NCBI GenBank assembly: GCA_020725385.1
Contig: DYFC01000047.1
Coordinates: 1-34,131, forward strand
Reading direction: 5' to 3'
From: Nitrospira japonica
Lineage (GTDB): Bacteria; Nitrospirota; Thermodesulfovibrionia; Thermodesulfovibrionales; SM23-35
DNA length: 34,131 nucleotides
Positions 8,429 through 30,775 of the stretch are shown here, piece by piece. Position 1 is the stretch's first letter. The number at the start of each line of letters is the position of its first letter. Below the pieces are notes generated by a model. The model was not told where the DNA came from. It searched no databases and was given only the letters and a program-made list of their open reading frames with translations. The position numbers and the translations under genes were made by a program.

Positions 8429-9544
8429 ATGACAAATAATATTGATATAATAGAGGTAAAATCACAGAAAGAACTTAATAAATTCATTAGCTTTCCATTT
8501 AAACTTTATAAAAATGATCCCTACTATGTGTCTCCTTTGATTTCAGATTTAAAAAAACAGTTTTCAGAAAAAAATCCTTTTTTCCTACATTCAAAAGTTC
8601 GTTATTTCATTGCCAAAAAAGAAGGCAATACTGTGGGCAGGATTGTTTCAATTATAAACCATAGACATATAGAGTTTCATAATGAAAATGCAGGATTTTT
8701 TGGATTTTTTGAGTCAATAAATGACCAGAAAGTTGCAAACGCATTGCTATCAACAGTTTCCTTAGAACTAAAAGAAAACGACATGGAAATAATGCGTGGT
8801 CCAATGAATTTTTCGACTAATGAAGAGTGCGGATTTTTATTTGAAGGATATGATAGTCCACCCATGCTTATGATGCCATATAATCCTCAATATTATCACA
8901 CTCTTATGGAAAATTATGGGATGCAAAAAGCAAAAGACCTTTTTGCGTATATTCTTAATACACCGGATGAATTACCAAAAAAAATACACAGAGTTGCTGA
9001 GATAGCTTCTAAATTCGGTATTACTGTAAGACAAATTGATAAAAAAAACTTTGAACGAGATATGAGGATTTTTAAAGAAGTTTATAATTCAGCATGGGCA
9101 AAAAACTGGGGATTTATACCTATAACTGATGAAGAACTTGTTTTTCTTGGCAATAATCTTAAGCCTGTAGTCGTGCCTGATATGACGATTATCGCAGAAA
9201 AGGACACAGAACCGGTAGGATTCTTAGGGCTATTACCTGATTATAATTTTGTCTTAAAGCATATGAAAGGCAAATTAAATCCTTTGACCATAATAAAAGC
9301 GCTTTATTATTCAAAAAAAATAAAAGATTTAAGAATGCTTCTTCTCGGCACAAAACCCGACTACCGTAACAAAGGAGTTGATGCTTTGCTTTTTAGAGAA
9401 GCCTTCAAAGGTGTTAAACGCGGGGGTTACAAACGAGTCGATTTTTCATGGATACTTGAAGATAATATACCTGTTCAAAGACTTGTTGAAATGATTGGCG
9501 GTAGATTGTATAAAAAATACAGGATATATGAAAAGAAGATTTAA
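8429..9544 (+). CDS. GNAT-family N-acetyltransferase (YghO-like)
   Basis: GFFGFFE, GPMNFSTNEECG, WAKNWGF, YRNKGVD, SWILEDN motifs. Confidence 0.8.
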   Translation: MTNNIDIIEVKSQKELNKFISFPFKLYKNDPYYVSPLISDLKKQFSEKNPFFLHSKVRYFIAKKEGNTVGRIVSIINHRHIEFHNENAGFFGFFESINDQKVANALLSTVSLELKENDMEIMRGPMNFSTNEECGFLFEGYDSPPMLMMPYNPQYYHTLMENYGMQKAKDLFAYILNTPDELPKKIHRVAEIASKFGITVRQIDKKNFERDMRIFKEVYNSAWAKNWGFIPITDEELVFLGNNLKPVVVPDMTIIAEKDTEPVGFLGLLPDYNFVLKHMKGKLNPLTIIKALYYSKKIKDLRMLLLGTKPDYRNKGVDALLFREAFKGVKRGGYKRVDFSWILEDNIPVQRLVEMIGGRLYKKYRIYEKKI

Positions 9545-11163
9545 AAAGTTCTTCCATGAACCCATCCGGAATCAGGGCAGTAAGTACAGGCATAACATCT
9601 GTCAATGTAATCAACACTATAATGATGATGACAGTTCAAACATAACCACTGGTTTCCACAATGCGCACCATTTGGCGTTAAATTGAGATTAAATTCTGGA
9701 ACATATATTGAAACAGTTGTATCTGAATGATAATGGCACGATGTACAGAATTCTTGCGGGCTATCCACTGTTCTGTTGTCAACATTCCATGTAGGTGGAG
9801 AATATTTACCATTTGTTGTTACTCTTAAAAGATATGCATTTTGTGACCCGTGAGGTTCATGGCAATCTGTACAATTGAGGATAAAATTTGTATAATTGGC
9901 TGTTTTATAAGGTTCCTTCAGAGCACCCCACCATGCAGGAACTTGTACTGTATGTCCTGTTGCCTTAGATGTGCAATTACAGTAACCACATTGAATATTA
10001 TCGGGGATTCCGTCAGGAACCTGGCCATTTGAAGCATTACAATCATTATCTAAATCAGTTAAATTTGCAGCACATGAAGGATCCCTTTGATACAAATTCC
10101 CTACCGACTGTGTTTCACATTCATCTGTATAATAATCAGGGGGATGCGGATGAGATCTAAAGCTGTTTTCTTTATACACACCACATGTTCTCCATTGTCC
10201 CCCTATTTTACCATCAATATCACAGCATCTTGCTATAGAGCCATGCATATCTCCGGGCATATTGTAAATCCGATTTTGATTCGACCAGTCAATTTTAAAT
10301 AAATTTCTTCCACTACAAGTACAAGGATTATCAGAATAATGCATATGAGGTTGAGGGATAGAAGAACTATATATAGTATTAGTTGCATTATGACAATCAG
10401 AACAGAATGTTACATAATCGGGAACATTTGAGCCATCTGTCGTAGAAGACCCATCAGGTTCATATCCTCCCCCTTTTCTATATGGAGCATGATATTGTCC
10501 TCCATGAGATGATGCATAATAACTCATCCTTTCATTTGGCTCATCTCCCCATATATTATTCCTGTCAGTTGGACGAACTACCGGATAACCTCTTTGTGCA
10601 AGATGGGGATTATGACATGCATTACATGGATTTGATTCATTTTTAAAAGTTTCTGGCCATTTTGTTTTGACAAAGTTAAGTATATCCTGAAGGTTATGTG
10701 CTGAACTTTGGCAGCAATCAACAGGTGAAGGATTAAATGCATCATAAATATTGTTTGGTGTTGTTAATGTTGTATCTCCACCAAACCAGTAACTGTAATT
10801 ATAATTTATATGAGAAAATGATGTCTGAATTGAGCCTGAACCTTTATGGCAATAAAAACAGAAATTATTTGATTGATTAACAAAATTATTTGCAAAAAGT
10901 AAATATGATGATGGGCTACCGCTTACAGGATTTGGTTCAGAACCATTTATGCTTGCATGTTGTTCATGACAATGAGCACAATTGCCCCTTGAATATCCAA
11001 AATTAGATGTAGCAATACGGTTTACACCATAATTTAAATTTCCATGGGCAGAATCAATATATGCACCGCTTTCAATCATTTCAGGGAATATAATAAGACT
11101 TAAAATAATTATTCCAATAACAGGAAATAATCTATTTAATTTTATAAGATTATTAAATCTCAT
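9541..11163 (-). CDS. Exported 7-heme c-type cytochrome with Cys-rich insertion
   Basis: 7 CxxCH (CAHCH, CFYCH, CNACH, CSDCH, CTDCH, CTSCH, CLNCH); hydrophobic N-terminus; GGAGG before ATG 11163. Confidence 0.88.
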   Translation of the reverse strand: MRFNNLIKLNRLFPVIGIIILSLIIFPEMIESGAYIDSAHGNLNYGVNRIATSNFGYSRGNCAHCHEQHASINGSEPNPVSGSPSSYLLFANNFVNQSNNFCFYCHKGSGSIQTSFSHINYNYSYWFGGDTTLTTPNNIYDAFNPSPVDCCQSSAHNLQDILNFVKTKWPETFKNESNPCNACHNPHLAQRGYPVVRPTDRNNIWGDEPNERMSYYASSHGGQYHAPYRKGGGYEPDGSSTTDGSNVPDYVTFCSDCHNATNTIYSSSIPQPHMHYSDNPCTCSGRNLFKIDWSNQNRIYNMPGDMHGSIARCCDIDGKIGGQWRTCGVYKENSFRSHPHPPDYYTDECETQSVGNLYQRDPSCAANLTDLDNDCNASNGQVPDGIPDNIQCGYCNCTSKATGHTVQVPAWWGALKEPYKTANYTNFILNCTDCHEPHGSQNAYLLRVTTNGKYSPPTWNVDNRTVDSPQEFCTSCHYHSDTTVSIYVPEFNLNLTPNGAHCGNQWLCLNCHHHYSVDYIDRCYACTYCPDSGWVHGRTF

Positions 11164-11221
11164 TTTTCCTCCAAAACATTTAAAAAATTCTTTGTCTTTC
11201 GTAAGTATGTTACAAAGATTT

Positions 11222-11297
11222 CTGGATTCCCCGATCAAGTCGGTGAATGACACTTTTCATAAGCAGTTTTATTATTCCCGTGCAGGCGGGAACCCAG
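11222..11297. repeat. Pair of REP-like palindromes
   Basis: CTGGATTCCCCGA-TCAAG-TCGGTGAATGAC and TTATTCCCG-TGCAGG-CGGGAACCCAG in opposite orientation; related copy at 26119-26147. Confidence 0.7.
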
Positions 11298-11341: not shown

Positions 11342-11383
11342 CCTCTCTTTACACTCTTAGCTCTTAGCTATTCGCTCTTTGCT
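11342..11383 (-). repeat. Degenerate heptamer array, family A (AGAGCNN on mRNA)
   Basis: About 5 units starting at the TAG stop of the 11382 gene. Confidence 0.7.
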
Positions 11384-12668
11384 AATTTTTGCCCGTATGG
11401 CATACTGTACATCCGTTAAATTCACCGCTCGCTGGCCAGCCTTTATAATCCCATCTCATAATTTTTGAATATGGTGAACCATGCGCTCTATGACATGAAA
11501 GACACATAACAAGGTCAGTTCCGAGTCTCACTGTGGCATCAGGAGTAGTCCATCCATTAAGTGTGGGTCTCGCAACAGGAACTCGGGGATCATAAGTTCC
11601 AGTACCTCCGGTTGCATTATACGCACTTGCAAACTCACCGGAATTAGGAATCACAGCATCAGATGGATGTCTGATCCATGCATTTGATGTTGATTGTTCT
11701 ATATGAAAATTACCATGACATCCTGTACAATAGGCAGTCATGGTATTTCCAAGTGCAGAAAAACCACCTGCGCTTGTTTTTGTTCCAGAATAGCCTAAAT
11801 ATTCATTATGAACAGTACTACTTGCATCGTGTTGCCAGTTTACATCTATAAGTCCGGTTACGCCATGACCCGAACCACTTTGATGGCCTGAAAGAAACCT
11901 GAACCAGCCATCGGATGTGCTATTTTTTAATGGATCCGTATCATTAATATGATGATAACCTTTTGGAAAATCAGTTCCCACCATATGACATTTTGTGCAT
12001 CCTTGTCTTGCACCCGGGAACCCGAACGATGGCGGGCTTGTACTGGCGTATAAATTTTTGTGACATGCATTTACACCTCCGCATGTTCCTCCACCAACAT
12101 CTCCAGGAGCAGAAGACAGATTATCATCTCCATTTCCTAAAAAAACATTATGACCTTTTGTATCATTTTCAGAGCTTGCAACTCCTGTAGAGACCCAATA
12201 GAAATTACCGCCTGATAAAGGATTTGCAGGATAGCCTGTTGTATTAAATACAATTGGGACTTTTTGCCCCCCTGGCAAAGTTTTTATCGTCTCGCCATCT
12301 GTTGAACTGTGACAGCCAAGACAGGTAGCATTTAACAGAGTTTCATTAGGAGTATTTAGAGTTCCCGAGCCTCCCCATGGGGTATCACCACGATTCATAG
12401 CCTGTCCATTTTGACTGTTGTGCATTGTATGACAATTAACACAGGGACCGGTAACTTTTGCATAAAGCGCTGTTGTAAAAATCAAAGAAGAAATTATAAA
12501 AAACAAAAAACCTAGTTTACCTGGTTTACTTAGTTTACTCAGTTTATCGAGTTGGAATATCTGAACAATTATTTTCAACCATGTAAACAGTGTAAACTGA
12601 GTAAACTGAGTAAACTGGGTAAACAATGTTAACTGTGTAACTTTTTTTATTTGAGTTGATTTTTTCAT
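11382..12668 (-). CDS. OmcS-like multiheme cytochrome (6 CxxCH + 1 CX5CH)
   Basis: CVNCHTMHNS, GGNF, KGHNV, APG, RHPSD, CLSCHRAH and terminal CTVCH follow OmcS motif order. Confidence 0.85.
   Translation of the reverse strand: MKKSTQIKKVTQLTLFTQFTQFTQFTLFTWLKIIVQIFQLDKLSKLSKPGKLGFLFFIISSLIFTTALYAKVTGPCVNCHTMHNSQNGQAMNRGDTPWGGSGTLNTPNETLLNATCLGCHSSTDGETIKTLPGGQKVPIVFNTTGYPANPLSGGNFYWVSTGVASSENDTKGHNVFLGNGDDNLSSAPGDVGGGTCGGVNACHKNLYASTSPPSFGFPGARQGCTKCHMVGTDFPKGYHHINDTDPLKNSTSDGWFRFLSGHQSGSGHGVTGLIDVNWQHDASSTVHNEYLGYSGTKTSAGGFSALGNTMTAYCTGCHGNFHIEQSTSNAWIRHPSDAVIPNSGEFASAYNATGGTGTYDPRVPVARPTLNGWTTPDATVRLGTDLVMCLSCHRAHGSPYSKIMRWDYKGWPASGEFNGCTVCHTGKN
12511..12643. repeat. Inverted nonamer arrays, family B (GTTTACNNN / GTAAACNNN), inside signal-peptide coding region
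   Basis: Encodes TQFTQFTQF and LSKLSKPGK. Confidence 0.85.
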
Positions 12669-12669
12669 A

Positions 12670-12714: not shown

Positions 12715-12716
12715 TA

Positions 12717-14006
12717 TTACCTTTTATGGCATTGAATACATAGTTGCCTTTTTCTATCAAAATAAAGCATAAACTCTGCTTTAGCTGAATGCATACTGTG
12801 ACATGTAAGGCAGGTTAAAGGTTTCCCGTCTCTTGGGTCTTTTGTGTCTTTTCCAAGTGGATGGGTTACCTTATGCTGCCCTTCATGACATCTTGCACAT
12901 GATAAAATTTCATCGGATTTTAAATATAATCTGTTCTCAGAGTGAGGAGGAATATGACACTGAAAACATTTTCTATCTTTTACCGGAGTGCACCTTATTT
13001 TTTTCAAAGCTTTTTCCATAAGAATAGTCTTCTTTTCGGTATTCTCATGACAGCTTGAACATACTTCTGTTTCTCTTGCTGTTAGATTCTTATCTTGTGA
13101 AGCGTGTTGACTGTGACACATTAGACATTCTGCCTTTTCCTTTATTAAATGTTTGTCATTTGCTTTTAAAACAAATTTATCTTTTTTATGGCAACTGAGA
13201 CATAAGTCTGTAACCTTCATTTTTACCGAGACGTTCTTATCAGTAGCAAAAGGATTGTGGCATTGTTCACACTTCATATCAAGAAATTCTTTATGTCCGT
13301 ATGGTCCAAGTAATCCTTTTTTATCAGAAGCATGACCGCTGTGGCACGAAGTGCATTTCATATTTTGAGTATATTGATTTATGGAAACGCCATTTATTGA
13401 GCACTTAACTGGATGGCATTTCACACAAATTTTAGTTGATGAATCAACAAGCTGGTTTTCTGTAGAAGATGCATGTGGCTCATGACATGACGCACATTCT
13501 CCGTTCTTAAACGGTTTGTGCACTACTACCTTTTTAAATTGTTCCTGTAAAGACTCATGGCACATCCAGCATAATTTTTCCTGCTCTTTTATAAGAAGAT
13601 GCTTAATAGCTCCACTATGTGCATAATGGCAATCCGTGCATAGACCTCTTTTTAAAACATGATGAACATATTTATTTTTTAGTGAATTCCTTATTTTTTC
13701 ATGGCATCCGAGACAAAGCTTATTTATGTCTTCTTTAATTAATCCTTTTATATCTCCTGAATGAGAATTATGACAGGAATTACATTTGCCTTCTTTAAAA
13801 GGTGAATGAACAACCGGATCAGAGAGTTTATCTCTCATTTTTATATGACATTGATAGCATAAAGCCGGCACACTGGCTTTTAAATCGCCTTGTTCAGCAA
13901 AAACAAAACCACCCCAGGTCAAAATAATTGAGGTTATGGCTAAGATTAAGATTCTAAATCCTGAACTGTGGACTTTGAACTTTGAACTTTGAACTTTTTT
14001 ATTCAT
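12717..14006 (-). CDS. 16-heme c-type cytochrome (doubled CXXCH type)
   Basis: 16 CxxCH counted; signal peptide; AGGAG before ATG 14006, overlapping upstream stop. Confidence 0.92.
   Translation of the reverse strand: MNKKVQSSKFKVHSSGFRILILAITSIILTWGGFVFAEQGDLKASVPALCYQCHIKMRDKLSDPVVHSPFKEGKCNSCHNSHSGDIKGLIKEDINKLCLGCHEKIRNSLKNKYVHHVLKRGLCTDCHYAHSGAIKHLLIKEQEKLCWMCHESLQEQFKKVVVHKPFKNGECASCHEPHASSTENQLVDSSTKICVKCHPVKCSINGVSINQYTQNMKCTSCHSGHASDKKGLLGPYGHKEFLDMKCEQCHNPFATDKNVSVKMKVTDLCLSCHKKDKFVLKANDKHLIKEKAECLMCHSQHASQDKNLTARETEVCSSCHENTEKKTILMEKALKKIRCTPVKDRKCFQCHIPPHSENRLYLKSDEILSCARCHEGQHKVTHPLGKDTKDPRDGKPLTCLTCHSMHSAKAEFMLYFDRKRQLCIQCHKR
13962..13996 (-). repeat. Heptamer array, family C (AAGTTCA), in signal-peptide n-region
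   Basis: AAGTTCA x3, AAGTCCA, CAGTTCA encoding KVQSSKFKVHSS. Confidence 0.75.
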
Positions 14007-15948
14007 GGCAACTCCTGCAATCTCCTTTTGCAAAAGGAGCATGTTTTATATTTCTTAATAACCCTGGCTTTTCTGTAACATGAGGTTCATGACATGGCAG
14101 ACATTTTGTTATTCTGCTTATAGGTTTTAAATGAACTTTTAATAGAGTATTACTATCAGCAGAGTGGCATTTTGTACATAATAACGGATCTTTTTCATTT
14201 AAAAGATGAATAATATTTGAATAATGAGGTTTATGACAACTTAGACAATCACCTGAATCAAAAGCAATATGTCCTTTTCTTAAATTTGTTTTAACAATTC
14301 TTTCATGACATGATAAACACAATTCTTTTGGCTTATTTAAAAGTAGCTTTCCTGTTTTTGTTAAATGAGGATTATGGCATGATGTACACTTCCCTTCTTC
14401 CACAGGAAGATGTTTTTCGCTTAATTGTTTAATCTCTGTTTCCATATTTTTATGACAGCTATAACATAAATCAGTCATTGTATTTTTAGTATTTGCAACA
14501 AATTCACTTGCATGGGGGTCATGACATATCAGACAGGATTTTTTCTGAAATGGTTTATGCATTGTAACTTCTTTTGAATCTGAAAACATTGCTTCATGAC
14601 ACTTAGTGCAAATTTGTTCATTTGAAACATCAAGAAGGTTTCTATATTGTGATGAATGAGGTTTATGACATGACATACACTTCTTATTGTTAACAGGTGT
14701 GTGTATATATGTTTTGAAAAATTCTTTTTCTTCTTTCTTGTGACATGTATAGCACAAATCAGTTGCTGCTACTTTTAATATCCCTTTTGTATTTGTACCA
14801 TGAGGGTCATGGCATTTCTGGCATTCTGCTTTTGAAAATGGTATATGCAGATTGCCGTCTTTTAACTCCTTTTCAGTGTTTACATGGCAACCAAAGCAAA
14901 GATTTTTCTGCTGGGATTTTAAATAGAATTGATTCTGTGATGAATGTGGATTATGACATACTGTACAACCCTTTTCTTTCACAGGTTTGTGCTGTACAGA
15001 GACTTTAAGAATATCGGTCTTTTTCTTATGGCATGTAAAACATAGAACATTGGTAGATTTTAGTATTATTTTATTATAATCTGACGCATGAGGATTATGA
15101 CATTCAAGGCATTTTCCTTCGTCAAGAGGTTTATGACGGTAAGCTTGCTTAAAAGACATTTCTTCTTTCTTATGACAGTTGTAGCAAAGTGTTACACCCT
15201 TTACTTGTAAATCAAGCGGGTTAGGATCACTTGATTTTTTATGGCAGGAAGAACATTCTCCTTTTTTCATAGGACTATGCACTGACATTTTAAGAAGTTT
15301 ATTATCAGAAGAGCTATGGGGTGTATGGCATTCTGTGCATCTTCCTTTTTCAACAGGATAACCTTTATGTGAATTTTTAAAACTTTCCTTAGAAAAATCA
15401 TGGCAGGTTTTGCATAATTCAACTTCCTTTTTTATAAGATTCTGACCGAATTCAGAACTATGAGGATCGTGACAGATAAGACATCCATCTGATAATGGTT
15501 TATGTTGCACTTTACGTATAAAAGCATCTTTCTTATGGCACTGGAAACATTGTTCATTTCCTGTTTTTCTTAAAAGATACTTATTATCAGATGCATGAGG
15601 GTGATGGCATGGTGTGCATTTACCCTGTTTTAAAGCTGAATGAACTGAAACCTTTTTAAGTACGCGTGTTTCAAAATCTTTATGACAGAGGATACATAAT
15701 TTTTTTTGCTCTCTTTCTTTAAGGCTTAATACTGCAATTTTTCCATGTCTGTTATGACACGCTTCACAGTCTTTTTTTGCCATTGGTTCATGAATATACT
15801 TTTTCTGGTATTCAGGCAAAGTTTTTGTATGGCAATCAAGACAGGGTTTTGCGACAAAGCCTTTTCTTCTTGGTTCGGTTGTAGTACAGGTATAAACAAA
15901 GCATAATAATAATATTAAAAATAACTTTGGTATATGACTTTTTTGCAT
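13999..15948 (-). CDS. 26-heme c-type cytochrome, probable lipoprotein
   Basis: 26 CxxCH counted with HxP distal ligands; signal ending VYTC. Confidence 0.93.
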   Translation of the reverse strand: MQKSHIPKLFLILLLCFVYTCTTTEPRRKGFVAKPCLDCHTKTLPEYQKKYIHEPMAKKDCEACHNRHGKIAVLSLKEREQKKLCILCHKDFETRVLKKVSVHSALKQGKCTPCHHPHASDNKYLLRKTGNEQCFQCHKKDAFIRKVQHKPLSDGCLICHDPHSSEFGQNLIKKEVELCKTCHDFSKESFKNSHKGYPVEKGRCTECHTPHSSSDNKLLKMSVHSPMKKGECSSCHKKSSDPNPLDLQVKGVTLCYNCHKKEEMSFKQAYRHKPLDEGKCLECHNPHASDYNKIILKSTNVLCFTCHKKKTDILKVSVQHKPVKEKGCTVCHNPHSSQNQFYLKSQQKNLCFGCHVNTEKELKDGNLHIPFSKAECQKCHDPHGTNTKGILKVAATDLCYTCHKKEEKEFFKTYIHTPVNNKKCMSCHKPHSSQYRNLLDVSNEQICTKCHEAMFSDSKEVTMHKPFQKKSCLICHDPHASEFVANTKNTMTDLCYSCHKNMETEIKQLSEKHLPVEEGKCTSCHNPHLTKTGKLLLNKPKELCLSCHERIVKTNLRKGHIAFDSGDCLSCHKPHYSNIIHLLNEKDPLLCTKCHSADSNTLLKVHLKPISRITKCLPCHEPHVTEKPGLLRNIKHAPFAKGDCRSCHE

Positions 15949-16023: not shown

Positions 16024-17649
16024 TTATTTTCCTCCTTGCTTTAAAAGCTTATCTTCAAGCAATTTAATTTTTTCATCGTATATGTTTATACTCACATCTT
16101 TCTTTAATTTCCTTACAACCTGGTTTATATTTTCCTTAAGTTTTTCATTAAAACATATTCTATAAACTTGAGCCTTTACATTATCGAATTCCTCATATTC
16201 TTCTTTTGAAACTTCCTTCAACATATAAATTGCATATTCTGATTCATCAATTTTAATAATGTCTGAGAAATCTCCGGGTTTGAGTTTTTCCATGTTTCGC
16301 CTTAGTTGTTCTGGAAGTTCTTTTTCAGTAATCCATCCAAGTTCACCTGATTTCTGAGATAATTTGTCTTTTGACTTTCTTTTAGCAAGCCATGAAAAAT
16401 CAGCTCCATTTTTAAGATTTTCCAAAATCTCATTTGCTTCTTTTTCGGTTTCAACAGTAATCATTTGCATTTTATATCTTAGAGGTTTCATAAAATCCTT
16501 TTTTTGTTTTAAATAGTAATTTTGCATTGTTTCTTCATTTATAATTATTTGAGGGAATATTATGTTCTTAATATAAATATTTTTTAATAACTGGTCTTGA
16601 TACCTTTTAATCTTATCTTTGATTTCAGGAAGATTCTGGTAATTCCTTGATAGAGCTTCATGATCTATTAATTTACGCTCTATCCAGTTGTTAACAATAG
16701 CCTCGGGAGAAAATCTCTGTCCCTGTTTTCTTAAATCTCTAAAGGCTGAAACTTTCAATTTATCTTCACCAACTTCTGCTACAATTTGTTCAGGCTCTAT
16801 ATCTTCTTTATTTAATGTTTCTTCCGAAAGCAATTCTTTATTTATAAATATTTTTGCTTTCGCTCTTAACTTTTCTATACATTCGTCACCCTTTTCTTTT
16901 TCCTTCTGTTTCCTTAATCTTGTTTTAATTGTTTCTTTTAAATTATCAAATTCACTCTCTAAGGCTTCCTCTTTGTTTAAAAATAAAACAATGTAATATT
17001 TATCAGATATTTTTACAGGTTCTGTATATTCTCCCTGGTTTATCTTTGAAATCGCTTTATATATTTCATCATTCATTGAAACTCTTGTCTGAACAATTTC
17101 TTTATCTGCTTCTTTTGATGGATGAATTGAGTATGCTTTGACTATATCTTCAAACTTAGAACCGTTCTTTAAATTCATCATTATCTTATTAGCAGTATCT
17201 TCTGAATTGACTTCTATAAATTTATATTTAAAACGTTCATAATCCTTTTTAAATGCCTCTTTTACTTCTTCATCTGTAACACTTACTTTATTCAATACCT
17301 CTTCTTCTCTCAATTTCATCACAGATTCTCTTAAGATAAAAGCATCCAAAGCTGATACTACCTCGGGCAATTTATCCATTCCGGCCAGACGGGCATCATG
17401 AATTATAATCCTGTCATCTATCATTTTATTAACATATTGAGATAAATTAAGAGTTCCTGCAGAAGAAAGATCATCACGTCTATGGGATATTGTAAGTGAA
17501 TAGATTAAATCCCCTTCTGTTACAGGTTCTCCATCAACAGTTGCAAGAACCAATTCCTTTTTATCAGAAGAGGCACAATTATTAAAAAGTAAGAATACCG
17601 CCAGAATAATGAATAGATTTAAATAAGTTATTGTCTCTTTTGTTTTCAT
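16024..17649 (-). CDS. Parvulin/SurA-type peptidyl-prolyl isomerase chaperone, lipoprotein
   Basis: VLATVDGEPVT, two rotamase-like domains (GADFSWLAKRKS...GELGW), signal ending NNC. Confidence 0.85.
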   Translation of the reverse strand: MKTKETITYLNLFIILAVFLLFNNCASSDKKELVLATVDGEPVTEGDLIYSLTISHRRDDLSSAGTLNLSQYVNKMIDDRIIIHDARLAGMDKLPEVVSALDAFILRESVMKLREEEVLNKVSVTDEEVKEAFKKDYERFKYKFIEVNSEDTANKIMMNLKNGSKFEDIVKAYSIHPSKEADKEIVQTRVSMNDEIYKAISKINQGEYTEPVKISDKYYIVLFLNKEEALESEFDNLKETIKTRLRKQKEKEKGDECIEKLRAKAKIFINKELLSEETLNKEDIEPEQIVAEVGEDKLKVSAFRDLRKQGQRFSPEAIVNNWIERKLIDHEALSRNYQNLPEIKDKIKRYQDQLLKNIYIKNIIFPQIIINEETMQNYYLKQKKDFMKPLRYKMQMITVETEKEANEILENLKNGADFSWLAKRKSKDKLSQKSGELGWITEKELPEQLRRNMEKLKPGDFSDIIKIDESEYAIYMLKEVSKEEYEEFDNVKAQVYRICFNEKLKENINQVVRKLKKDVSINIYDEKIKLLEDKLLKQGGK

Positions 17650-17679: not shown

Positions 17680-17790
17680 CCTACTTAGTTTGCCTTGTTT
17701 ACTAAGTTTGCTCTGTTTACATTGTTAAAATAGTTTAAGGTATTACAACTCGATAAACTATGTAAACCGAGTAAACTGTGTAACCGGGTT
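17680..17790. repeat. Inverted nonamer arrays, family B, intergenic
   Basis: GTTT(A/G)C arm and GTAAAC arm with about 20-nt spacer, starting at stop 17789. Confidence 0.8.
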
Positions 17791-22961: not shown

Positions 22962-24716
22962 TCAATAAGGAAACATTGCTATACCGTATGGATTTTTACC
23001 AACTGGTATAACCTTTTCTTCAGATATAGTTGTTTTATCAACAACAGTAACAGAGTCATCTCCTCTGTTGACTGTATATATTTTTCTGCCTTCAGGATCC
23101 ATGATAAAAGATTTTGGTGAAGTTCCAACCTGAATATTTGCAATTACTGGCGATACAGTTGTTCTTGCTGCACTGAATGCTTCTGAAAAAGGCCTGATTA
23201 CCGTGATTTCTGATGGATATTCTTTTAGCAAATAAAAGCGGTCAATATCAGGGTCTGGAATTATGCCTGTTACCTTAGTTCCAACATTTGCTATCTCGCT
23301 GACAACACCGCTTTCATATCCTTTTGCTATAAGAACTATGTCGATAACTGACAGGTTGTCATAATTATAATTTCCAACATAAACTTTTCCACGCTGATAA
23401 TCAACTGCAAGGGTAACCGGAGACCATTGAACCGGAAGTAAAAAGATTTTTTCAGGCTTTAATTTTTGAGAATCCATTTTAATTAAAGTCACATCTTTTG
23501 AATTTTTGTTTGCAACATAAACATTAAAGTATTTATCCCTATAATTTCTAAGTGAATTAAAATCCTCGAAACTCAAGAATCTTGTCTGCTGTAAAATATC
23601 CAAAGGCGGATCCGCGACAATATATACAGGATTATTTCCTGTGTTTATCTTGTCAATCTCCTGATAAGTTGCACTGTCAACAACAGAGACATTATCCGAA
23701 CCATAATTGGCAATAAAAAGAAGTTCCCTCTCAGGAGATATTTTTGCAACTGTAATGCTCTCGGGTGAATTTCCAAAACGTAACGGAATTTCGGTTTCAA
23801 CCTTATGCGTGGTTGGATTTATAACAGAAACACTTCCAGAAACTGAATTTACAACATAAACTCTTGGTTTTTCTCTGATCTGACTGACTGCAATACCTCT
23901 TGGTTTTTTGCCAACCATAATATTTGCAACTACATCATCTGTCTGCCTGTTAATAACAGAAACATTATTGGAATCTTCATTTGTAACATATATAAGAAGA
24001 CTGCTTAATTCAGGTGATTGCGTCTTTAAAGAAAATATCGGATTAAACTGGAAACCATCTCTAATAGAATTATCTGAATTCCATGTTAAAAATAAAGGAG
24101 AGCTTTGATTTCTTATGACATTTAAATCAATATCTAATGTCAACCATTCAGATGGGATTGAAAGACTCGCTGTCCTGCCCTCTTTCTTTAATATTGCATC
24201 TTTTATCTTGAATTGAAGCTTTTTGTATCTTCCTTGAGGAATATTAACCTCGCCTAAAATTATCTGTTTGTTAGATAAAGAAATTGAATTTATCTTTAAT
24301 GGCTTTGAAGACACTTCCTTTGGTTCATTGTTTTCAGAAACTATTTGTATTGATTGAATCTCAAAAGTTATGTCAGTTGATACTTTTTCAGTGCCTTTAA
24401 GATAAATAATTACCTGTCCATCAGATATTCCACCTGATGTTATATGTTCCTTAACAGAAGAACAGCCAAAAGGCAAGCAGAGAGCGAAGAGCAAAGAGCA
24501 AAAAGCTAAGAGCATAGAGCGGAGAGCTGAGAGAAAAGGACGGGGAGCAAAAAGCAAAGAGCGTAGAGCGTAGAGCGTAGAGCAAAGAGCATAGAGCATA
24601 GAGCTTAGAGCGAAGAGCAAAGAGCGAATTTCACTAAACACAACTCTATAACCATTGGAAAAAATCCAAATGTTTAGTCCTGCAATTTTTTTATAAAACC
24701 GCTTATCATTCGACAT
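22962..24716 (-). CDS. Lipoprotein with DUF4382-like N-domain and YVTN beta-propeller
   Basis: YVTNEDSNNVSVI, YVVNSVSG, FIANYGSDNVSVVD, PVGKNPYGI; lipobox PFGC; start uncertain. Confidence 0.82.
   Translation of the reverse strand: MSNDKRFYKKIAGLNIWIFSNGYRVVFSEIRSLLFALSSMLYALCSTLYALRSLLFAPRPFLSALRSMLLAFCSLLFALCLPFGCSSVKEHITSGGISDGQVIIYLKGTEKVSTDITFEIQSIQIVSENNEPKEVSSKPLKINSISLSNKQIILGEVNIPQGRYKKLQFKIKDAILKKEGRTASLSIPSEWLTLDIDLNVIRNQSSPLFLTWNSDNSIRDGFQFNPIFSLKTQSPELSSLLIYVTNEDSNNVSVINRQTDDVVANIMVGKKPRGIAVSQIREKPRVYVVNSVSGSVSVINPTTHKVETEIPLRFGNSPESITVAKISPERELLFIANYGSDNVSVVDSATYQEIDKINTGNNPVYIVADPPLDILQQTRFLSFEDFNSLRNYRDKYFNVYVANKNSKDVTLIKMDSQKLKPEKIFLLPVQWSPVTLAVDYQRGKVYVGNYNYDNLSVIDIVLIAKGYESGVVSEIANVGTKVTGIIPDPDIDRFYLLKEYPSEITVIRPFSEAFSAARTTVSPVIANIQVGTSPKSFIMDPEGRKIYTVNRGDDSVTVVDKTTISEEKVIPVGKNPYGIAMFPY
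24474..24628. repeat. Heptamer array, family A (NNGCTCT on mRNA), downstream arm
   Basis: About 20 units encoding SLLFALSSMLYALCS... Confidence 0.9.
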
Positions 24717-25027
24717 AATTCCTCAAGTTCCAACAATACCTTTTCTTTGACATTGTTTTGTATATATTTCCTTTTTTCAAAAATAATCATCATATTTGCG
24801 TTTTCAAAACATGATCTTTTAGCAATATTTAAAAATTTAATAAAATCCTTCCTTGAATTACTTCCCGATCCTTCAGCAATATTATTCGAGATTGACAGAG
24901 CAGCTCCTCTTAGCTGTTCAGCAAATCTATATAACTTTTTATCTTCGATATCATCTGAAATATCAAACAATTCTTCTGCAATATCAATTGATTTCTTCCA
25001 TATGTCTAAGTTCTCAAACCTAAACAT
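24674..25027 (-). CDS. Four-helix-bundle protein (23S rRNA IVS protein family, Avd-like fold)
   Basis: FENLDIWKKS...QLRGAALSISNNIAEGSG...FIKFLNIAKRSCFE...MISGFI signature. Confidence 0.92.
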   Translation of the reverse strand: MFRFENLDIWKKSIDIAEELFDISDDIEDKKLYRFAEQLRGAALSISNNIAEGSGSNSRKDFIKFLNIAKRSCFENANMMIIFEKRKYIQNNVKEKVLLELEELCRMISGFIKKLQD

Positions 25028-25028: not shown

Positions 25029-25088
25029 TCTCTTTGCTCTCCGCTCTAAGCTCTATGCTCTTAGGTCTTTGCTCTTCGCTCTTTGCTC
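25029..25088. repeat. Heptamer array, family A (AGAGCNN on mRNA), upstream arm
   Basis: About 8 units filling the gap from stop 25087 to ATG 25027. Confidence 0.9.
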
Positions 25089-26070
25089 ATTCCTTTACTT
25101 CAAACACCTGTATTCTGTCATTGAAAGTATCGGCTACGAGTAATCTGCCTGATATGTCAACTGCTATATCTCTTGGATGCTGAAACCAGCCTTCTCCCCA
25201 GCCAAGACCTCCAAACTCTGTGAGGTATTTTCCTGTTTTGTCATATATTGAAATCGTATGCCTCATATAATCATCTATGTATATCAGACCTTTTTTGTCA
25301 TCAATAGCAATAGATACAGGTCTGCTTAATTTTCCTGAACCACCGCCTTTTTCACCGAATTTGAAAAGAAATTTTCTATTTTCATCATAAACATAAACAC
25401 GGCTTTCTTCTTCGCTTAAAATATAAATCTTGCCTTCATTATCAATTTTTACATCAATTGTTTTTACCTTCTGACTGTTTTCCTCTGGAGAAATCGTCTC
25501 AATATATTTCCCGTTGCTATCAGTTATTATTATTCCCGGATAACTATTGCCAGCGATATAAAGATTTCCTTTTTTATCAGAAGATATTCTATATGGCATG
25601 AACTTATCACAATCTTTAAATCCTTCAACATAAATATCTTTTTGCCATATCAGGCATGGATTATAAACAGATATCCTGCATTTTTTATGTGATTTGCTTT
25701 GTCCCTGAATAACATACACATAGCCAGCGCTATCTACTGTCAATGCCTGCGGAGCATCTATATCATTTCTTTTATCAAGAGTTATAATTGGAAATAAATC
25801 TGCTGTATATATAATTATCCTTCCCATTCCATCAATTACATATATCTCATTTTTTACAGGTTCAGAATATACAAAAGAAGGATAACGTATTCTCAAGTCC
25901 TCTTCATCTGTGCTTATATAATTCAGATAATTCACAGATGGGTTAGCATAAGCAAAATTAGCAAAAATTGATATTATGAACTGAAATATTATTGCTTTTG
26001 ATATTAATTTTATGTTTTGCTTCTTACACATAACTAAACCACCTTCGTTAAACCTCTTCATTTTTTTCAT
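25087..26070 (-). CDS. NHL-repeat beta-propeller protein, exported
   Basis: FGEKGGGSGKLSRPVSIA, FQHPRDIAVD...VADTFNDRIQVF; start may be ATG 26031. Confidence 0.88.
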   Translation of the reverse strand: MKKMKRFNEGGLVMCKKQNIKLISKAIIFQFIISIFANFAYANPSVNYLNYISTDEEDLRIRYPSFVYSEPVKNEIYVIDGMGRIIIYTADLFPIITLDKRNDIDAPQALTVDSAGYVYVIQGQSKSHKKCRISVYNPCLIWQKDIYVEGFKDCDKFMPYRISSDKKGNLYIAGNSYPGIIITDSNGKYIETISPEENSQKVKTIDVKIDNEGKIYILSEEESRVYVYDENRKFLFKFGEKGGGSGKLSRPVSIAIDDKKGLIYIDDYMRHTISIYDKTGKYLTEFGGLGWGEGWFQHPRDIAVDISGRLLVADTFNDRIQVFEVKE

Positions 26071-26243: not shown

Positions 26244-26259
26244 TTTTAGATGGTTTACA

Positions 26260-26293
26260 AAAATGGGTCAGTATAAATAAACTGACCCATTTT
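26260..26293 (-). terminator. Rho-independent terminator/attenuator after the first OmcS-like gene
   Basis: 13-bp stem AAAATGGGTCAGT / ACTGACCCATTTT with T tail. Confidence 0.82.
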
Positions 26294-26315: not shown

Positions 26316-27353
26316 TTACCTCTGCAAGTGATGACATCCAAGACAGCCTGTTGTTCCTCCTCCACCGGCAGACATTGTTGCATAATCCCATCTCAAAATA
26401 TCATTGTAAGGTGTTCCGTGAGCTCTGTGGCAGGATACACAGGTAACCCTTGCGCCTGTTGTCGTATAAGCGGTAGTTGTTGTAGCAGAAGTATATTCAG
26501 CGCCATTAAAACCAAAAGGATTATTCTCATAGTCAACAGTAACAAGTGCCATATTCCATCCTGTTGCAGCGGATAACAGGTTTTCGGTAGGATGTCTTAT
26601 CCATGTGCTTCCATTATGCACATCGGTATCACCATGAAAATCGCCATGACATAATGAACACAACGCACTGATAGAATCTCTCGCAGTATCATTTATTCCG
26701 GAAGTCGCATAATAGACGTTATGATTGGTTGATGTTGCGCCGCCAAGTTCCCAGTTGCTTGAGCCTTTTCCTTGAATTGCAGTAGATGCTGCACCATCAT
26801 AGAATTGTAAATAGCGGTATCCTTGTTTCCATCCATGATGGAATCCTCTTATTCCAGCATCACTTCCAGCCTGGGTATGATCTCCATGGCAACCGAGTGT
26901 ACCGGCACAGGTCAATTGAGCTGCTCCAGCAGGTTCTGCATATCCGCCACTTTCAGCGCCAGGTGTAGCATTCAATAATTCAACCTCTTCACGTGTCCAT
27001 GAAATATCTCTTACATTATGAACTTTGTGATAGTCACCTGCTGCTGCATCAACTACAGTAGCTTTGAATGTGCCACCTGCTGTCATATCGGTTCCTGGTG
27101 TACCAAAAATATTCGGGGCTCCAGAGCCTGCAATTAATCCAGCATGACAACCTGTACATGAAGCTCTTGTAAGGTGTCCATAAGGTGTTGTAGAGTTATT
27201 GCCAGCATCATCTTTCGCCATTGGAGCATTGTTCTGGCTATTGTGCATTGTATGGCATTTGTCGCACCTACCTGTTACCTTTGCGTAAGCAAAGCTTGAG
27301 ATAAGACCGAGTGAAAGCATTGTAATTAAACCTACTAATAAAATCTTTCTCAT
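26316..27353 (-). CDS. OmcS-like hexaheme cytochrome, likely major subunit (5 CxxCH + CX5CH)
   Basis: CDKCHTMHNS, AGGTF, HNV, CAGTLGCH, RHPTE, CVSCHRAH, CLGCH; AGGAGGTG RBS before ATG 27353. Confidence 0.87.
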   Translation of the reverse strand: MRKILLVGLITMLSLGLISSFAYAKVTGRCDKCHTMHNSQNNAPMAKDDAGNNSTTPYGHLTRASCTGCHAGLIAGSGAPNIFGTPGTDMTAGGTFKATVVDAAAGDYHKVHNVRDISWTREEVELLNATPGAESGGYAEPAGAAQLTCAGTLGCHGDHTQAGSDAGIRGFHHGWKQGYRYLQFYDGAASTAIQGKGSSNWELGGATSTNHNVYYATSGINDTARDSISALCSLCHGDFHGDTDVHNGSTWIRHPTENLLSAATGWNMALVTVDYENNPFGFNGAEYTSATTTTAYTTTGARVTCVSCHRAHGTPYNDILRWDYATMSAGGGGTTGCLGCHHLQR

Positions 27354-27466
27354 ATTTTTCACCTCCTTCCTTTTATATATAAGCTAAAAGCCTGCCAGCC
27401 TTTATCTTCTAATTTATTTATATTTTGCTAATTTACTTTTGCTTTATAATAATTTCCTTTCCATTG

Positions 27467-27506: not shown

Positions 27507-27523
27507 TGTCTAATTTATATAAA

Positions 27524-27539: not shown

Positions 27540-27655
27540 CTCCACATTGAATTAGAATTATTACAAATTGTTAGCTTATGATTAAATATAATATTTATGG
27601 CATGGTATTTGTCAAGGTAATTTTATCTTATGCTTAATTATAAATTTTAGCTAAA

Positions 27656-27727: not shown

Positions 27728-28186
27728 ATGATAGAATCGAAAGAACTAAAGAAAAATTCCAATGAGATTAAACAAATAAGAAAAATTCTTTCGAGTTTAA
27801 TAAAAACTAAGGAATACCTACTTGTTGTTTATTTATTTGGTTCTTTTGCAAAGAATTCAGAAAATGAAAAGTCAGATATAGATTTAGCTTTTGTTTTTAA
27901 TGAAAAATTTTATAAAGAAGACCCTTTTAGAGCCTTACAGGAAGCTGAACTATTAGGAGCAGAGATAAATAAAAAGACAAATAAAGCGGTAGATGTAGTA
28001 GTTCTCAATGGCGCTTCTTTAAATTTTGCATATCATGTTGTAAGAGAAGGAATTCCCATTTATGAAAAGAGAGTTGTTGAGAGAATTATCTATGAAGTAA
28101 ATTTAGATAATAAGTATCAAGATTTTATACCTTTTATTAAAGAACTAAGGGAATTAAAGAAGGGAAGTCTTATTGGAAGAGATTAA
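27728..28186 (+). CDS. mntA: MNT antitoxin (minimal nucleotidyltransferase), type VII TA
   Basis: YLFGSFAKNSENEKSDIDLA (GS-X10-DXD); TGATATAAT ends 7 nt before ATG, probably leaderless. Confidence 0.88.
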   Translation: MIESKELKKNSNEIKQIRKILSSLIKTKEYLLVVYLFGSFAKNSENEKSDIDLAFVFNEKFYKEDPFRALQEAELLGAEINKKTNKAVDVVVLNGASLNFAYHVVREGIPIYEKRVVERIIYEVNLDNKYQDFIPFIKELRELKKGSLIGRD

Positions 28187-28598
28187 TGCAAAAATCGCTG
28201 TTGTTCAGGAAAGAATAAGAAGGTTATCAAACTTTTCAAGTCTTTCTTTTGAATCTTATCTTAAAGATTTAACAGTCAGAGATGCTATAGAAAGGAATAT
28301 TGAGGTTGCTATTCAAGCATGTATTGATATTGCCAGAATAATAATCAAAAGGGAAAGATTAAGGGAACCTGAAGATAATAAAGGTGTATTTGTTGTTCTT
28401 GCTGAAAATAATTATATTAGTGAAAAATCTTTGAAATTTCTTATCCCAATGGCTGGCACGCGTAATGTTCTTGTTCATGGCTATGATAAAATTGACGACT
28501 CAATTATTTTTGGTGTATTAAAAAAACATTTATCAGATTTTAACTTATTTATAAAAGATATTGAAGAAAGATATTTAATTAAAAAAACTGGTGATTAG
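28173..28598 (+). CDS. hepT: HEPN RNase toxin (DUF86), type VII TA
   Basis: AIERNIEVAIQACIDI and RNVLVHGY (RX4HXY); overlaps mntA. Confidence 0.88.
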   Translation: MEEINAKIAVVQERIRRLSNFSSLSFESYLKDLTVRDAIERNIEVAIQACIDIARIIIKRERLREPEDNKGVFVVLAENNYISEKSLKFLIPMAGTRNVLVHGYDKIDDSIIFGVLKKHLSDFNLFIKDIEERYLIKKTGD

Positions 28599-28611: not shown

Positions 28612-29772
28612 TTATTTTTTTGTATGACAGAAGAGGCAGCCTTTTTTATCCTTGCTTCCTGCTCCAGCCTCTGAATAATCCCATCTAAGTATATCAGGAT
28701 ATGGGCTTGCATGGGCTCTATGGCATGAAAGACACATTATAATGCTGTCTGAATCCACTGTATTTTCGTTACCTGTTGGATTCTGATAGGCAACTGGAGA
28801 TTCAAGACTGTAATTCACATATCCCTGATATTCTGAACCCGCATAACCTCCATGAACACCGCTGAATGATATGTCAGAGGGATGCCTTCTCCAGAGAGAA
28901 TTATATGCATGACCAACTTCTTTACTTCCCCCGAGATTAGGATTCGGATGAAACTTTCCATGACATTCTCCGCATAAATAACTTATTGTGTTCATTGAAT
29001 CATGTGTCTGATCTCCCTTATAGCCGTTATGTTCCGATTCACTCGCAAGATATTCCCAATCTTTATGTTCTTTTCCAACAATTCCATAAAGAAATCTATA
29101 ACTTTTTCCAACTGTTGAACCATCAATGGTACTGTCATCTTCATGATGTGCTCCATGCATTGCCCCAAATTCATCTTCAATGGTTCTATTGCCATGGCAT
29201 CCATACATACCAGAACATGAAAGCTGTTTGTACGAAGGCCAGTTAGAAGGTCCTGTTCCGCCCGGAATATTTACACTTTCAAGAAAACCCGGCGGAGTAT
29301 TCATTGGAGGACTTTCAATTAAAGATATTCCTTTAACATTATGTCCTTTTGAATAATCAGGATTAAACGGGTCGGCTACATAATAATAATTTCCACCAGC
29401 AAGATCTCCACTCTCCATGTGATGAATAACCTGTGGAACTCTCATTTTTCCTTTTTTAATAATATTTTCTGTGCCAGATGGGCTTTGACCATGACAGCCG
29501 AGACAACCGCCTATAGTCATAGACGGAAAAGGCCCTTTTTGATAAGCATATGTAACTTCTGCTCCTTCTTTGCTATAGTGCATTGAATGACAATCCTTGC
29601 ATTTCCCTTTAACACGAGCATCAACAACAGAAACAAAACAGCAAAGAGCAAAGAGCATTGAGCATAAAACATAAAGCGTAGAGTTTAGAGCGTAGAGCTT
29701 AGAGTCTTTGCTCTTCGCTCTTTGCTCTTTGCTCTTCGCTAATTTTATTTTCCCATATGACATATCAAACAT
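28612..29772 (-). CDS. OmcS-like hexaheme cytochrome (5 CxxCH + CX5CH)
   Basis: CKDCHSMH, GGNY, KGHNV, CSGMYGCH, RHPSD, CLSCHRAH, CLFCH; start 29772 or 29763. Confidence 0.85.
   Translation of the reverse strand: MFDMSYGKIKLAKSKEQRAKSKDSKLYALNSTLYVLCSMLFALCCFVSVVDARVKGKCKDCHSMHYSKEGAEVTYAYQKGPFPSMTIGGCLGCHGQSPSGTENIIKKGKMRVPQVIHHMESGDLAGGNYYYVADPFNPDYSKGHNVKGISLIESPPMNTPPGFLESVNIPGGTGPSNWPSYKQLSCSGMYGCHGNRTIEDEFGAMHGAHHEDDSTIDGSTVGKSYRFLYGIVGKEHKDWEYLASESEHNGYKGDQTHDSMNTISYLCGECHGKFHPNPNLGGSKEVGHAYNSLWRRHPSDISFSGVHGGYAGSEYQGYVNYSLESPVAYQNPTGNENTVDSDSIIMCLSCHRAHASPYPDILRWDYSEAGAGSKDKKGCLFCHTKK
29640..29740. repeat. Inverted heptamer arrays, family A, forming the signal peptide
   Basis: Encodes AKSKEQRAKSK then LYALNSTLYVLCSMLFALC. 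Confidence 0.85.
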
Positions 29773-30749
29773 CCATTTTTTCCGTTTTCATTTGTATAAA
29801 GATTTTCATAGTTCCATCTTAAAGAAGAGTCATAAGGTCCCGCATGCGCAAGGTGACATGAAAGACACATAACCGAATCTTTTCCTGTGTTAATTTCCGA
29901 ACTTGAAGTAGTACTTAAAGTTTCACGTGCAACAGGCGCATTAACATTATATATTGTATAATCTTCGTAACCCTGTTTGAAAGGTATTGGAACACCTACA
30001 GGATGCCTGAACCATCCACTTCTATTATTTTCAATATCATGGAAAGAACCATGACATGAGATGCAAATCATATCGATAGACTTTGAATATTCATTATGTT
30101 TATTTGAATTTGCTTTTTGATTCCAGTCTTTGTCCTCAAACCCTGTTACACCTTTTGTATTGGATGTAATCTTTAAAAATCTATAACTTTTTGCGGTTGT
30201 GCTTCCATCAATTGGCTTATCAATCGCATGATGTGTACCAACTATCGCTAAAAAGGGGTCATCAATATTTCTATCACCATGACATCCATTTGAACCAGCA
30301 CACATGAGATTTTCTCTATGACTATAACCAATGCTTGATGGATCCTTTTTCCTATTGTATCCTGGCGGGTCATTTCTAAATTTCATATCACTTGAAGCAA
30401 TTCCATAAACATTATGTCCTTTCCTATCACCGAAATCCTTCCCAACATAATAGAAATTACCACCGGCAAGAGAATTTACAGGTAGCACTGTATTATGAAC
30501 TACGGGAACTCTATTGCTTCCAAGATTTTTTATTGTATCGCTAGTTATATTTGAATGACAATTAACACAAAACTCATTTTTTTGAACATACTGAAATGCT
30601 TTTTTTGTATAAGTTTTCTCCATCATTCCAGGATAAAGATTATGGCATACATCGCAATCTCCACCAACAGTTGCCCGCACCTCTTGAGAAAAAATTATTA
30701 AAATAAATAGTAACGTTAAAATTAAAATATTCCTTATTTTCATATTCAT
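29745..30749 (-). CDS. Divergent OmcS-like hexaheme cytochrome (5 CxxCH + CX5CH)
   Basis: CDVCH, GGNF, KGHNV, CAGSNGCH, RHPVG, CLSCHLAH, CLICH; start ATG 30749 or 30743. Confidence 0.85.
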   Translation of the reverse strand: MNMKIRNILILTLLFILIIFSQEVRATVGGDCDVCHNLYPGMMEKTYTKKAFQYVQKNEFCVNCHSNITSDTIKNLGSNRVPVVHNTVLPVNSLAGGNFYYVGKDFGDRKGHNVYGIASSDMKFRNDPPGYNRKKDPSSIGYSHRENLMCAGSNGCHGDRNIDDPFLAIVGTHHAIDKPIDGSTTAKSYRFLKITSNTKGVTGFEDKDWNQKANSNKHNEYSKSIDMICISCHGSFHDIENNRSGWFRHPVGVPIPFKQGYEDYTIYNVNAPVARETLSTTSSSEINTGKDSVMCLSCHLAHAGPYDSSLRWNYENLYTNENGKNGCLICHMGK

Positions 30750-30759
30750 AAATTTAAAA

Positions 30760-30775
30760 TGCAACAATAATACCA
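30760..30775 (-). promoter_or_regulatory. Putative sigma54 -24/-12 promoter
   Basis: TGGTATTATTGTTGCA, GG-N10-GC. Confidence 0.5.

Follow-up and report, generated by a model that had tools for sequence, protein, structure and literature searches.

Positions 9541 to 30767 of contig DYFC01000047.1 (34,131 nucleotides analysed at full length, hereafter the window) hold a row of multiheme cytochrome and envelope protein genes that we interpret, with moderate confidence, as an extracellular electron transfer cluster of the osc (omcS companion) type. It belongs to a Nitrospirota-like bacterium, and OmcS-type filaments would be exported from the cell by way of a lipoprotein ring and an outer-membrane barrel. 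The homology of its cytochromes to OmcS, the conservation of its gene order in related loci and the nature of its putative export genes are taken in turn below.

Gene content of the cluster

A survey of the 27 open reading frames (ORFs) of at least 100 amino acids (aa) in the window gave 70 canonical CXXCH motifs, all of them in 7 minus-strand ORFs between 9541 and 30767, with none in the other 20 ORFs. They are divided as 7 in 9541-11253, 6 in 11382-12668, 16 in 12717-14042, 26 in 13999-15948 and 5 each in 26316-27362, 28612-29772 and 29745-30767. Alignment and a motif census add one CX5CH site to every OmcS-like protein, 4 in the window. The 74 heme motifs reported by a first-pass annotation of the same DNA (7+7+16+26+6+6+6) are recovered if the CX5CH sites are counted, and its gene order is borne out on the minus strand by Pfam and NCBIfam, apart from inserted genes. 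It had also described the DNA as low in GC, which agrees with the window value of 0.338, and had run the cluster to 30775, where we find the last ORF to stop at 30767. Read along the minus strand, the order is three OmcS-like genes, NHL, YVTN, barrel, three lipoproteins, peptidyl-prolyl isomerase (PPIase), 26-heme, 16-heme, OmcS-like and 7-heme, as follows.

29745..30767, minus strand: OmcS-like hexaheme paralogue without the His after heme motif 1 (His-less); 5 CXXCH and one CX5CH, CH-N-L-Y instead of CH-T-M-H
28612..29772, minus strand: OmcS-like hexaheme paralogue; 5 CXXCH and one CX5CH, S-M-H after motif 1, leader from heptamer arrays
26316..27362, minus strand: OmcS-like hexaheme, 348 aa, candidate major subunit; likely start ATG 27353 with GGAGG ahead, model pLDDT 91.5
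25087..26070, minus strand: NHL-repeat beta-propeller with signal peptide (Pfam, NCBIfam)
22962..24716, minus strand: YVTN beta-propeller lipoprotein with an N-terminal DUF4382-like domain (TIGR02276, E=8.3e-45)
20363..22813, minus strand: large outer-membrane beta-barrel, 816 aa; model pLDDT 92.4, about 30 long strands
19650..20378, minus strand: PelC-like lipoprotein, paralogue C (PelC 9h80_C, E=1.2e-10)
18952..19527, minus strand: PelC-like lipoprotein, paralogue B (5t11, E=1.3e-10; PelC 9h80_C, E=1.2e-5)
17789..18868, minus strand: lipoprotein, paralogue A, PelC-like in its N-terminal part and with an extra C-terminal domain (profile match, hhalign)
16024..17649, minus strand: PPIC-type PPIase lipoprotein with two rotamase stretches (Pfam, NCBIfam)
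13999..15948, minus strand: 26-heme cytochrome, 649 aa, with a conserved Cys after the leader
12717..14042, minus strand: 16-heme cytochrome (16 CXXCH, Pfam)
11382..12668, minus strand: heptaheme OmcS-like paralogue, 428 aa; 6 CXXCH and one CX5CH
9541..11253, minus strand: 7-heme companion cytochrome, 570 aa; likely start ATG 11163

Homology and fold of the OmcS-like cytochromes

In single-sequence searches (phmmer) the 428-aa protein (11382-12668) alone matches OmcS 6ef8 (E=2.4e-7); the 348-aa protein found no OmcS match at E<=1, and the 570-aa protein (9541-11253) found none. Of 5992 database candidates, 1618 are related to the 348-aa protein at E<=0.001, and the few that carry a name come from Thermodesulfobacteriota, Desulfobacterales and Desulfovibrionaceae metagenome-assembled genomes (MAGs). 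When 70 of its relatives were aligned and the alignment (A2) was used as a profile, OmcS 6ef8 was found with E=4.3e-19 over chain residues 7-348 of 407, with heme motifs 1-5 and the N-terminal C-x-x-C-H-T-M-H in register; motif 6 is C-terminal in both proteins. The next match of this profile is 7tfs, presumably OmcE, with E=2.4e-5 over the C-terminal part. An AlphaFold2 model of the 26316 protein built without hemes (pTM 0.87) has OmcS as its sole fold match in the PDB at E<=0.001 (E=1.6e-6, prob 1.00), at TM 0.46/0.41, an rmsd of 9.2 A and a sequence identity of about 20%. Among the 70 sequences of A2, 11 His are invariant and 3 more are nearly so, which is enough for bis-His ligation of six hemes. 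We read the window cytochromes as true OmcS homologues with a divergent, loop-rich fold, modelled heme-free, so that the OmcS type proposed for them at first pass is upheld by the profile match, the single-sequence match and the one significant fold match. From this homology we infer that some of the four paralogues may form filaments. Complex prediction for two copies of the mature 26316 protein scored 0.01 against a mark of 0.42, with controls not run, and speaks neither for nor against this.

The variation within the family was followed in an alignment of 105 members, namely the 4 window proteins and, from the related loci, 101 ORFs with a length of 300 aa or more. In the window proteins heme site 3 is CX5CH, and both its Cys and its His are invariant in A2 (70/70). 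The Cys-His of this column is found in all 105 members, while the spacing to the upstream Cys is 5 residues in 51, 2 in 53 and 1 in one. By the motif census nearly every member carries one non-canonical CXnCH (n = 3, 4, 5 or 6), and there are two architectures, 5+1 (hexaheme) and 6+1 (heptaheme). The third heme site of the family can be written as CXnCH with n from 2 to 6 depending on the clade, one clade having a seventh heme. No paper was found in the literature searched for CX5CH or CXXXXXCH together with heme; a weak match to the NCBIfam CX4CH/CXXCH domain from Geobacter means that unusual spacing as such is already known. The four paralogues of the window fall into four separate clades of the 105, each with orthologs elsewhere, and are therefore old duplicates.

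The His following heme motif 1 aligns with the T-M-H of OmcS and is kept in 3 of the 4 window paralogues. In OmcS this residue reportedly ligates a heme of the neighbouring subunit (Wang et al. 2019). Only 2 of the 105 members, the protein at 29745-30767 and its ortholog in locus L076 (L numbers are our labels for related loci), are His-less at this position, the others reading T-M-H or S-M-H. A review describes, in the part that deals with OmcS, a bond from a distal His of one subunit to a heme of the next; by this token a His-less member could, speculatively, sit at one filament end only. The His-less paralogue is possibly a filament end subunit or a non-polymerising form. It has Tyr instead of His, and in L076 its ortholog (L076:285-1343) again stands in tandem with that of the neighbouring gene.

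Conservation of the cluster in related loci

The OmcS-like alignment was used to scan one genome per species, which gave at least 646 pattern matches, 589 of them confirmed; the best 80 were kept and correspond to 78 loci. These loci are centred on OmcS-like genes; many of them lie on short contigs or end at the 10-kb flank limit, and many are cut before the barrel is reached. The window proteins were searched against the ORFs of the 78 loci, and the barrel by its own profile hidden Markov model (HMM). The counts were as follows.

OmcS-like gene: 78 of 78 loci
Lipoprotein(s): 37
NHL: 36
Barrel homologue: 32
7/8-heme companion: 29
YVTN: 16
Lipoprotein, PPIase and 26-heme together: 32/78
PPIase, 26-heme and 16-heme together: 32/78

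Wherever 2 kb or more of sequence precedes the first lipoprotein gene, the locus has a barrel homologue (13/13). The conserved block carries the labels Nitrospirota, Thermodesulfobacteriota and Aquificota, and it comes in two arrangements. The first is that of the window: OmcS-like gene(s), NHL, YVTN, barrel, three lipoproteins, PPIase, 26-heme, 16-heme, OmcS-like, 7/8-heme. It was found in L001, L002, L018, L020, L036, L044, L052, L060, L061 and L074, all labelled Nitrospirota, Nitrospirae, Nitrospira or Thermodesulfovibrio-type, except L060 ('Bacterium'). The second (barrel, lipoproteins, PPIase, 26-heme, 16-heme, NHL, OmcS-like, 8-heme, YVTN) occurs in Desulfobulbia, Desulfobacterales and Thermodesulfobacteriales, including the cultured Thermodesulfobacterium hydrogeniphilum DSM 14290 (L069), and also in an Aquificota MAG (L077). 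The gene order of the cluster is conserved across phyla. Since the window holds every member of the first arrangement, the word 'complete' given to the locus at first pass is fair relative to its relatives.

The same comparison bears on the host. For 11 cluster genes the best blastp matches are MAGs labelled Nitrospirota or Thermodesulfovibrionia (L001, L002, L020, L036, L051, L052, L018 and L074; 45-72% identity). Beyond the end of the cluster lies an opposite-strand GNAT gene, of which L002, L020 and L036 carry counterparts that are 67-71% identical. For the flanking oligoendopeptidase F (PepF), the organism-named proteins among the best 120 matches are all from Nitrospirae/Nitrospirota (5/5, about 70% identity); other database proteins reach 90%, and database proteins 90-92% identical to window proteins exist. 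By these matches, the GNAT synteny and PepF, the host is most likely a member of the Nitrospirota and probably of a Thermodesulfovibrionia type; none of the kept loci represents it closely. The earlier description of a non-Geobacter genome agrees with this assignment. Genes of the OmcS and DFE types have already been reported in Thermodesulfovibrionia from HMM surveys, as described in passages of PMC8478452. As a separate observation, an OmcS-like gene with 5+1 motifs (L055:388-1503) lies on a 5.8-kb contig binned as Candidatus Methanoperedens, which may reflect a binning error or a transfer.

Proposed export components

The three small lipoproteins are mutually paralogous (hhalign E=1.6e-64 and 1.2e-21), and the Cys of the lipobox is invariant in two of the ortholog profiles built from them (A6 and A8). 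On searching the profiles A6, A8 and A7 against all PDB sequences, the best solved relatives were PelC entries in each case (E=1.3e-10, 1.2e-10 and 6.8e-5, respectively), followed by LpoB and GNA1162. Of these entries, 5t10, 5t11 and 5t0z are ones that we take to be PelC, and 9h80_C carries the PelC label in the output. Pfam gave only weak LpoB, FlgO, GNA1162 and CsgG matches for the three proteins. The 816-aa barrel belongs to no Pfam or NCBIfam family and has 170 relatives at E<=0.001 in a search of 1.84 billion cluster representatives. Its model has an inserted domain at about residues 250-410, and its fold matches, at TM 0.20-0.38, are large barrels of a generic sort, among them TonB-dependent receptors, MtrB, the PapC usher and an S-layer barrel complex of 30 strands. 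By analogy, a lipoprotein ring that feeds or docks on the barrel would be the best-supported export route, and a PelBC-like ring-plus-barrel arrangement appears to fit better than a curli pore.

The other envelope proteins are assigned by their domains. A paired-CXXCH domain was identified in the cytochromes (Pfam/NCBIfam), with E=2e-138 for the 26-heme protein, whose orthologs at the related loci likewise have 26 CXXCH. The conserved Cys after its leader makes it likely that this protein is a lipoprotein. On TIGR03508, the DmsE/MtrA-type decaheme family, the 26-heme protein scores over the cut-off (1.1e-87) and the 16-heme protein under it (4.9e-37). The profile of the 7-heme companion gave generic multiheme matches only, and its orthologs mostly have 8 hemes.

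Put together, the parts suggest the following mechanism. The apocytochromes would be exported by Sec and matured in the periplasm, where the PPIase may help the loop-rich OmcS-like subunits to fold. The three lipoproteins would form a ring under the outer membrane, docked on the barrel as PelC is on PelB, and the subunits would exit, or be mounted, via the barrel. Outside the cell, subunits with the His after heme motif 1 would stack head to tail into a heme wire, for which the separately promoted and terminated 26316 gene would provide the likely major subunit. The 26-heme and 16-heme proteins would carry electrons over the periplasm to or from this wire. The wire could serve either to reduce minerals or to take up electrons from minerals or partners, the window being compatible with both directions of flow.

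Comparison with known systems

The abstract of the paper on the osc operon reportedly calls OscH a prolyl isomerase, OscEFG channel-like and OscD beta-propeller-like. Seen through the papers that cite it, the operon (GSU2504-GSU2493 of G. sulfurreducens; Shen et al. 2025, Cell Chem Biol) comprises omcS, omcT, the OmcS-like oscC (GSU2501), OscH for folding, OscE/F/G for secretion, OscD for morphology and the periplasmic cytochromes OscI (GSU2495) and OscJ (GSU2494). GSU2495 is described there as a protein of about 70 kDa with 26 hemes, and the eight-gene block GSU2500-2493 as present in every genome with a GSU2501 homologue. The window shares with this operon several OmcS-family copies, three small secretion-linked proteins, a PPIase, propeller protein(s), a second large cytochrome and a 26-heme cytochrome (649 aa here). 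Unlike the Geobacter operon, it has a Nitrospirota-like host, a third heme site of CX5CH rather than CXXCH, a heptaheme paralogue, a His-less paralogue and an extra 7/8-heme partner. Against these published descriptions, the resemblance to osc that was noted at first pass is matched at the level of domains and gene order.

The clusters DFE_448-465 of D. ferrophilus IS5, compared by their description in passages of PMC5815863, also encode extracellular multiheme cytochromes. That paper places homologues across sulfur-respiring Proteobacteria, Thermodesulfobacteria and Aquificales and proposes electron uptake; our related loci span the same taxon labels, including a Desulfovibrionaceae MAG (L003). 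Unlike the 26/16 pair of the window, the D. ferrophilus clusters have 12- and 14-heme partners according to these passages. Related clusters are also described, in excerpts from the literature, for the sulfate-reducing partners of anaerobic methanotrophic (ANME) archaea; such a link is unproven for the window genome, and nothing in this analysis points to one. From the OmcE clusters (mBio 2026, PMC13712944, relevant passages) the window differs in its OmcS-type subunit, the match to 7tfs being weak as given above, and the passages on OmcE clusters make no mention of PelC-like lipoproteins or PPIase. They do describe most OmcE and OmcS regions as containing large barrels and speak of a proposed porin-like mounting pathway, with which a route by lipoprotein ring and barrel agrees (PMC13712944).

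The Pel system of Pseudomonas aeruginosa has a ring of twelve PelC under the PelB barrel, as summarised in part of PMC12141448. As far as genes tell, the window is alike in that its small, PelC-similar outer-membrane lipoproteins adjoin a barrel gene. It is unlike PelBC in its predicted cargo, which is a folded heme protein instead of a polysaccharide, in its three paralogues versus one (one of them with an extra domain) and in its barrel, whose size greatly exceeds that of a typical porin and whose sequence is related to no named protein. With CsgG the lipoproteins share a broad domain class, but their scores are below the cut-off and the curli partner genes are missing from the window.

Since the system has been published as widespread and noted in this class, the window is a further example and the known picture is unchanged in kind. 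It supports the published claim of widespread OmcS/osc machinery and adds a well-resolved, complete case outside Desulfobacterota, from an uncultured, low-GC Nitrospirota-like genome. Three results, namely PelC-like rather than CsgG-like lipoproteins, a very large barrel that is a core member across phyla, and the split of the subunit family into old hexaheme, heptaheme and His-less branches, could guide work on how cytochrome filaments exit from the cell and on how they start and stop.

Alternative explanations

Several findings count against an osc-type nanowire cluster. The TM-score to OmcS lies under the usual mark for the same fold. G. sulfurreducens has four OmcS relatives, of which OmcS alone is described in the literature as known to form a wire, and family membership is therefore no proof of polymerisation. 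The ring-plus-barrel route is an analogy drawn from PelC sequence similarity, and docking of the ring is backed only by a neighbouring barrel gene, present in 30 of the 35 loci that have both lipoproteins and PPIase. The 80 kept matches include no Geobacter locus, and the match to osc is one with published descriptions of the Geobacter proteins. Promoter-like sites are not enriched (79 vs 78.8 in shuffles), five genes carry long repeat-encoded leaders, and a toxin-antitoxin pair and a 23S-rRNA-IVS-type gene break up the row.

The alternative that survives best, though we hold it to be distinctly less probable than the nanowire cluster, is a porin-cytochrome conduit, in which the barrel sheathes the 26- or 16-heme protein and the OmcS-like proteins are monomeric or small-oligomer caps, like MtrC on MtrAB. 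MtrB (6r2q_B) gives one of the two top TM-scores for the barrel model (TMq 0.34 / TMt 0.38), the 26- and 16-heme proteins give the DmsE/MtrA-type scores reported above, and the restriction of known polymerisation to OmcS among the Geobacter paralogues would suit such caps. For related clusters, the D. ferrophilus paper put forward a cytochrome complex integral to the outer membrane (PMC5815863). Yet all TM-scores of the barrel are low, so it has no close relative in MtrB, and the His after motif 1 is found in 99 of the 101 OmcS-like ORFs of the loci besides the three window paralogues that keep it. Mtr/Pcc systems, moreover, are not known to require three PelC-like lipoproteins and a PPIase. 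The conduit and the nanowire are not mutually exclusive.

We think it rather improbable that in this Nitrospirota lineage the locus encodes a differentiated machine of several subunits instead of a homopolymer, with a hexaheme protein as the major subunit, the heptaheme protein beside the periplasmic wires as a base or adaptor, the His-less protein as a dedicated end cap, export of them all by a PelBC-like ring of the three lipoproteins under the barrel of about 30 strands, and control of five genes through leader peptides from palindromic heptanucleotide arrays that form long mRNA hairpins and can differ in length.

Very unlikely is the curli-like CsgG pore of the first-pass annotation, in which the three lipoproteins would themselves export the subunits: two of the three have weak CsgG Pfam matches (E=0.0017 and 0.00048) and their LpoB, FlgO and GNA1162-like matches place them in the same broad domain class, but the CsgG scores (18.1 and 19.9 bits) are under the cut-off of 20.8, the third has no match, CsgG was not found among the PDB matches of any of the three profiles, family scans show no CsgA-, B-, E- or F-like gene in the window, and the separate conserved large barrel would be needless for a self-sufficient pore. 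The CsgG reading of the lipoproteins was dropped on these scores and on PelC being their nearest solved relative.

Expression signals and repeat arrays

A consensus scan placed two signals around the 26316 gene.

27588..27615, minus strand: sigma-70-like site, 11 of 12 positions, the best of the region, upstream of the 26316 gene
26260..26293: hairpin with a 13-bp stem and flanking A/T runs, terminator-like on both strands (consensus scan only)

The hairpin lies 23 nt past the stop of the gene. With the -35/-10 match, the GGAGG and this downstream hairpin, there is a weak case that the 26316 gene is a separately expressed major subunit. Terminator-like sites number 18 versus 9.6 expected (sd 3.1), about twofold.

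Short repeat arrays are found at 12582-12717, 17682-17720, 18804-18953, 19611-19653, 20220-20360, 22627-22795, 22885-22955, 24476-24628, 25030-25088, 26185-26248, 27468-27513 and 29675-29740. Their units are of 7 nt (GCTCT plus two variable bases, up to 21 copies) or 9 nt (GTAAAC plus three variable bases), and most cluster genes have them at the 5' end or a short way upstream of it. In five genes the heptamer arrays are read in frame as the charged start of the leader (K-S-K-E-Q-R-A repeats), and arrays in the inverse orientation as the hydrophobic core of the same five leader peptides (L-L-F-A-L-C-S repeats). The barrel and two of the lipoproteins have no alternative ATG, GTG or TTG that could serve as a start between the arrays and the cleavage site. 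Paired arrays fold as long mRNA hairpins (z = -4.05 and -4.99; 0/200 shuffles fold as well in each case). The repeat peptides recur in orthologs of L001, L020 and L036; such DNA arrays were found in L001 only among the 78 loci (4 arrays). Phase variation by the heptamer arrays is thought unlikely, the units being degenerate at two positions and the cleanest array having a 21-nt, in-frame period.

Other genes in the window

Rfam and tRNA scans of the window found nothing. The row of cluster genes is broken by three unrelated genes.

27728..28598, plus strand: MNT (nucleotidyltransferase)/HepT toxin-antitoxin pair (PF18765, 1.3e-18; PF01934, 8.3e-32)
24674..25027, minus strand: 23S-rRNA-IVS-type four-helix-bundle gene (PF05635, 1.9e-30)

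The MNT/HepT pair is an insertion between OmcS-like genes, and the IVS-type gene is likewise an insertion; both stand outside the system. Beyond the cluster, and transcribed divergently from it, a 513-aa secreted protein (31209-32750) has a weak thioredoxin/glutaredoxin-like domain. No homologue of it is listed among the ORFs of the 78 related loci, and a link to cytochrome maturation is therefore unsupported. The IVS-type gene (region 24470-25100) is bracketed by inverted heptamer arrays with 69-nt arms that are 81% complementary, so that it resembles a small inserted cassette, and a 75% identical copy is present in L031. An MNT/HepT-type pair, 62% and 81% identical to that of the window, adjoins an OmcS-like gene in L070 too.

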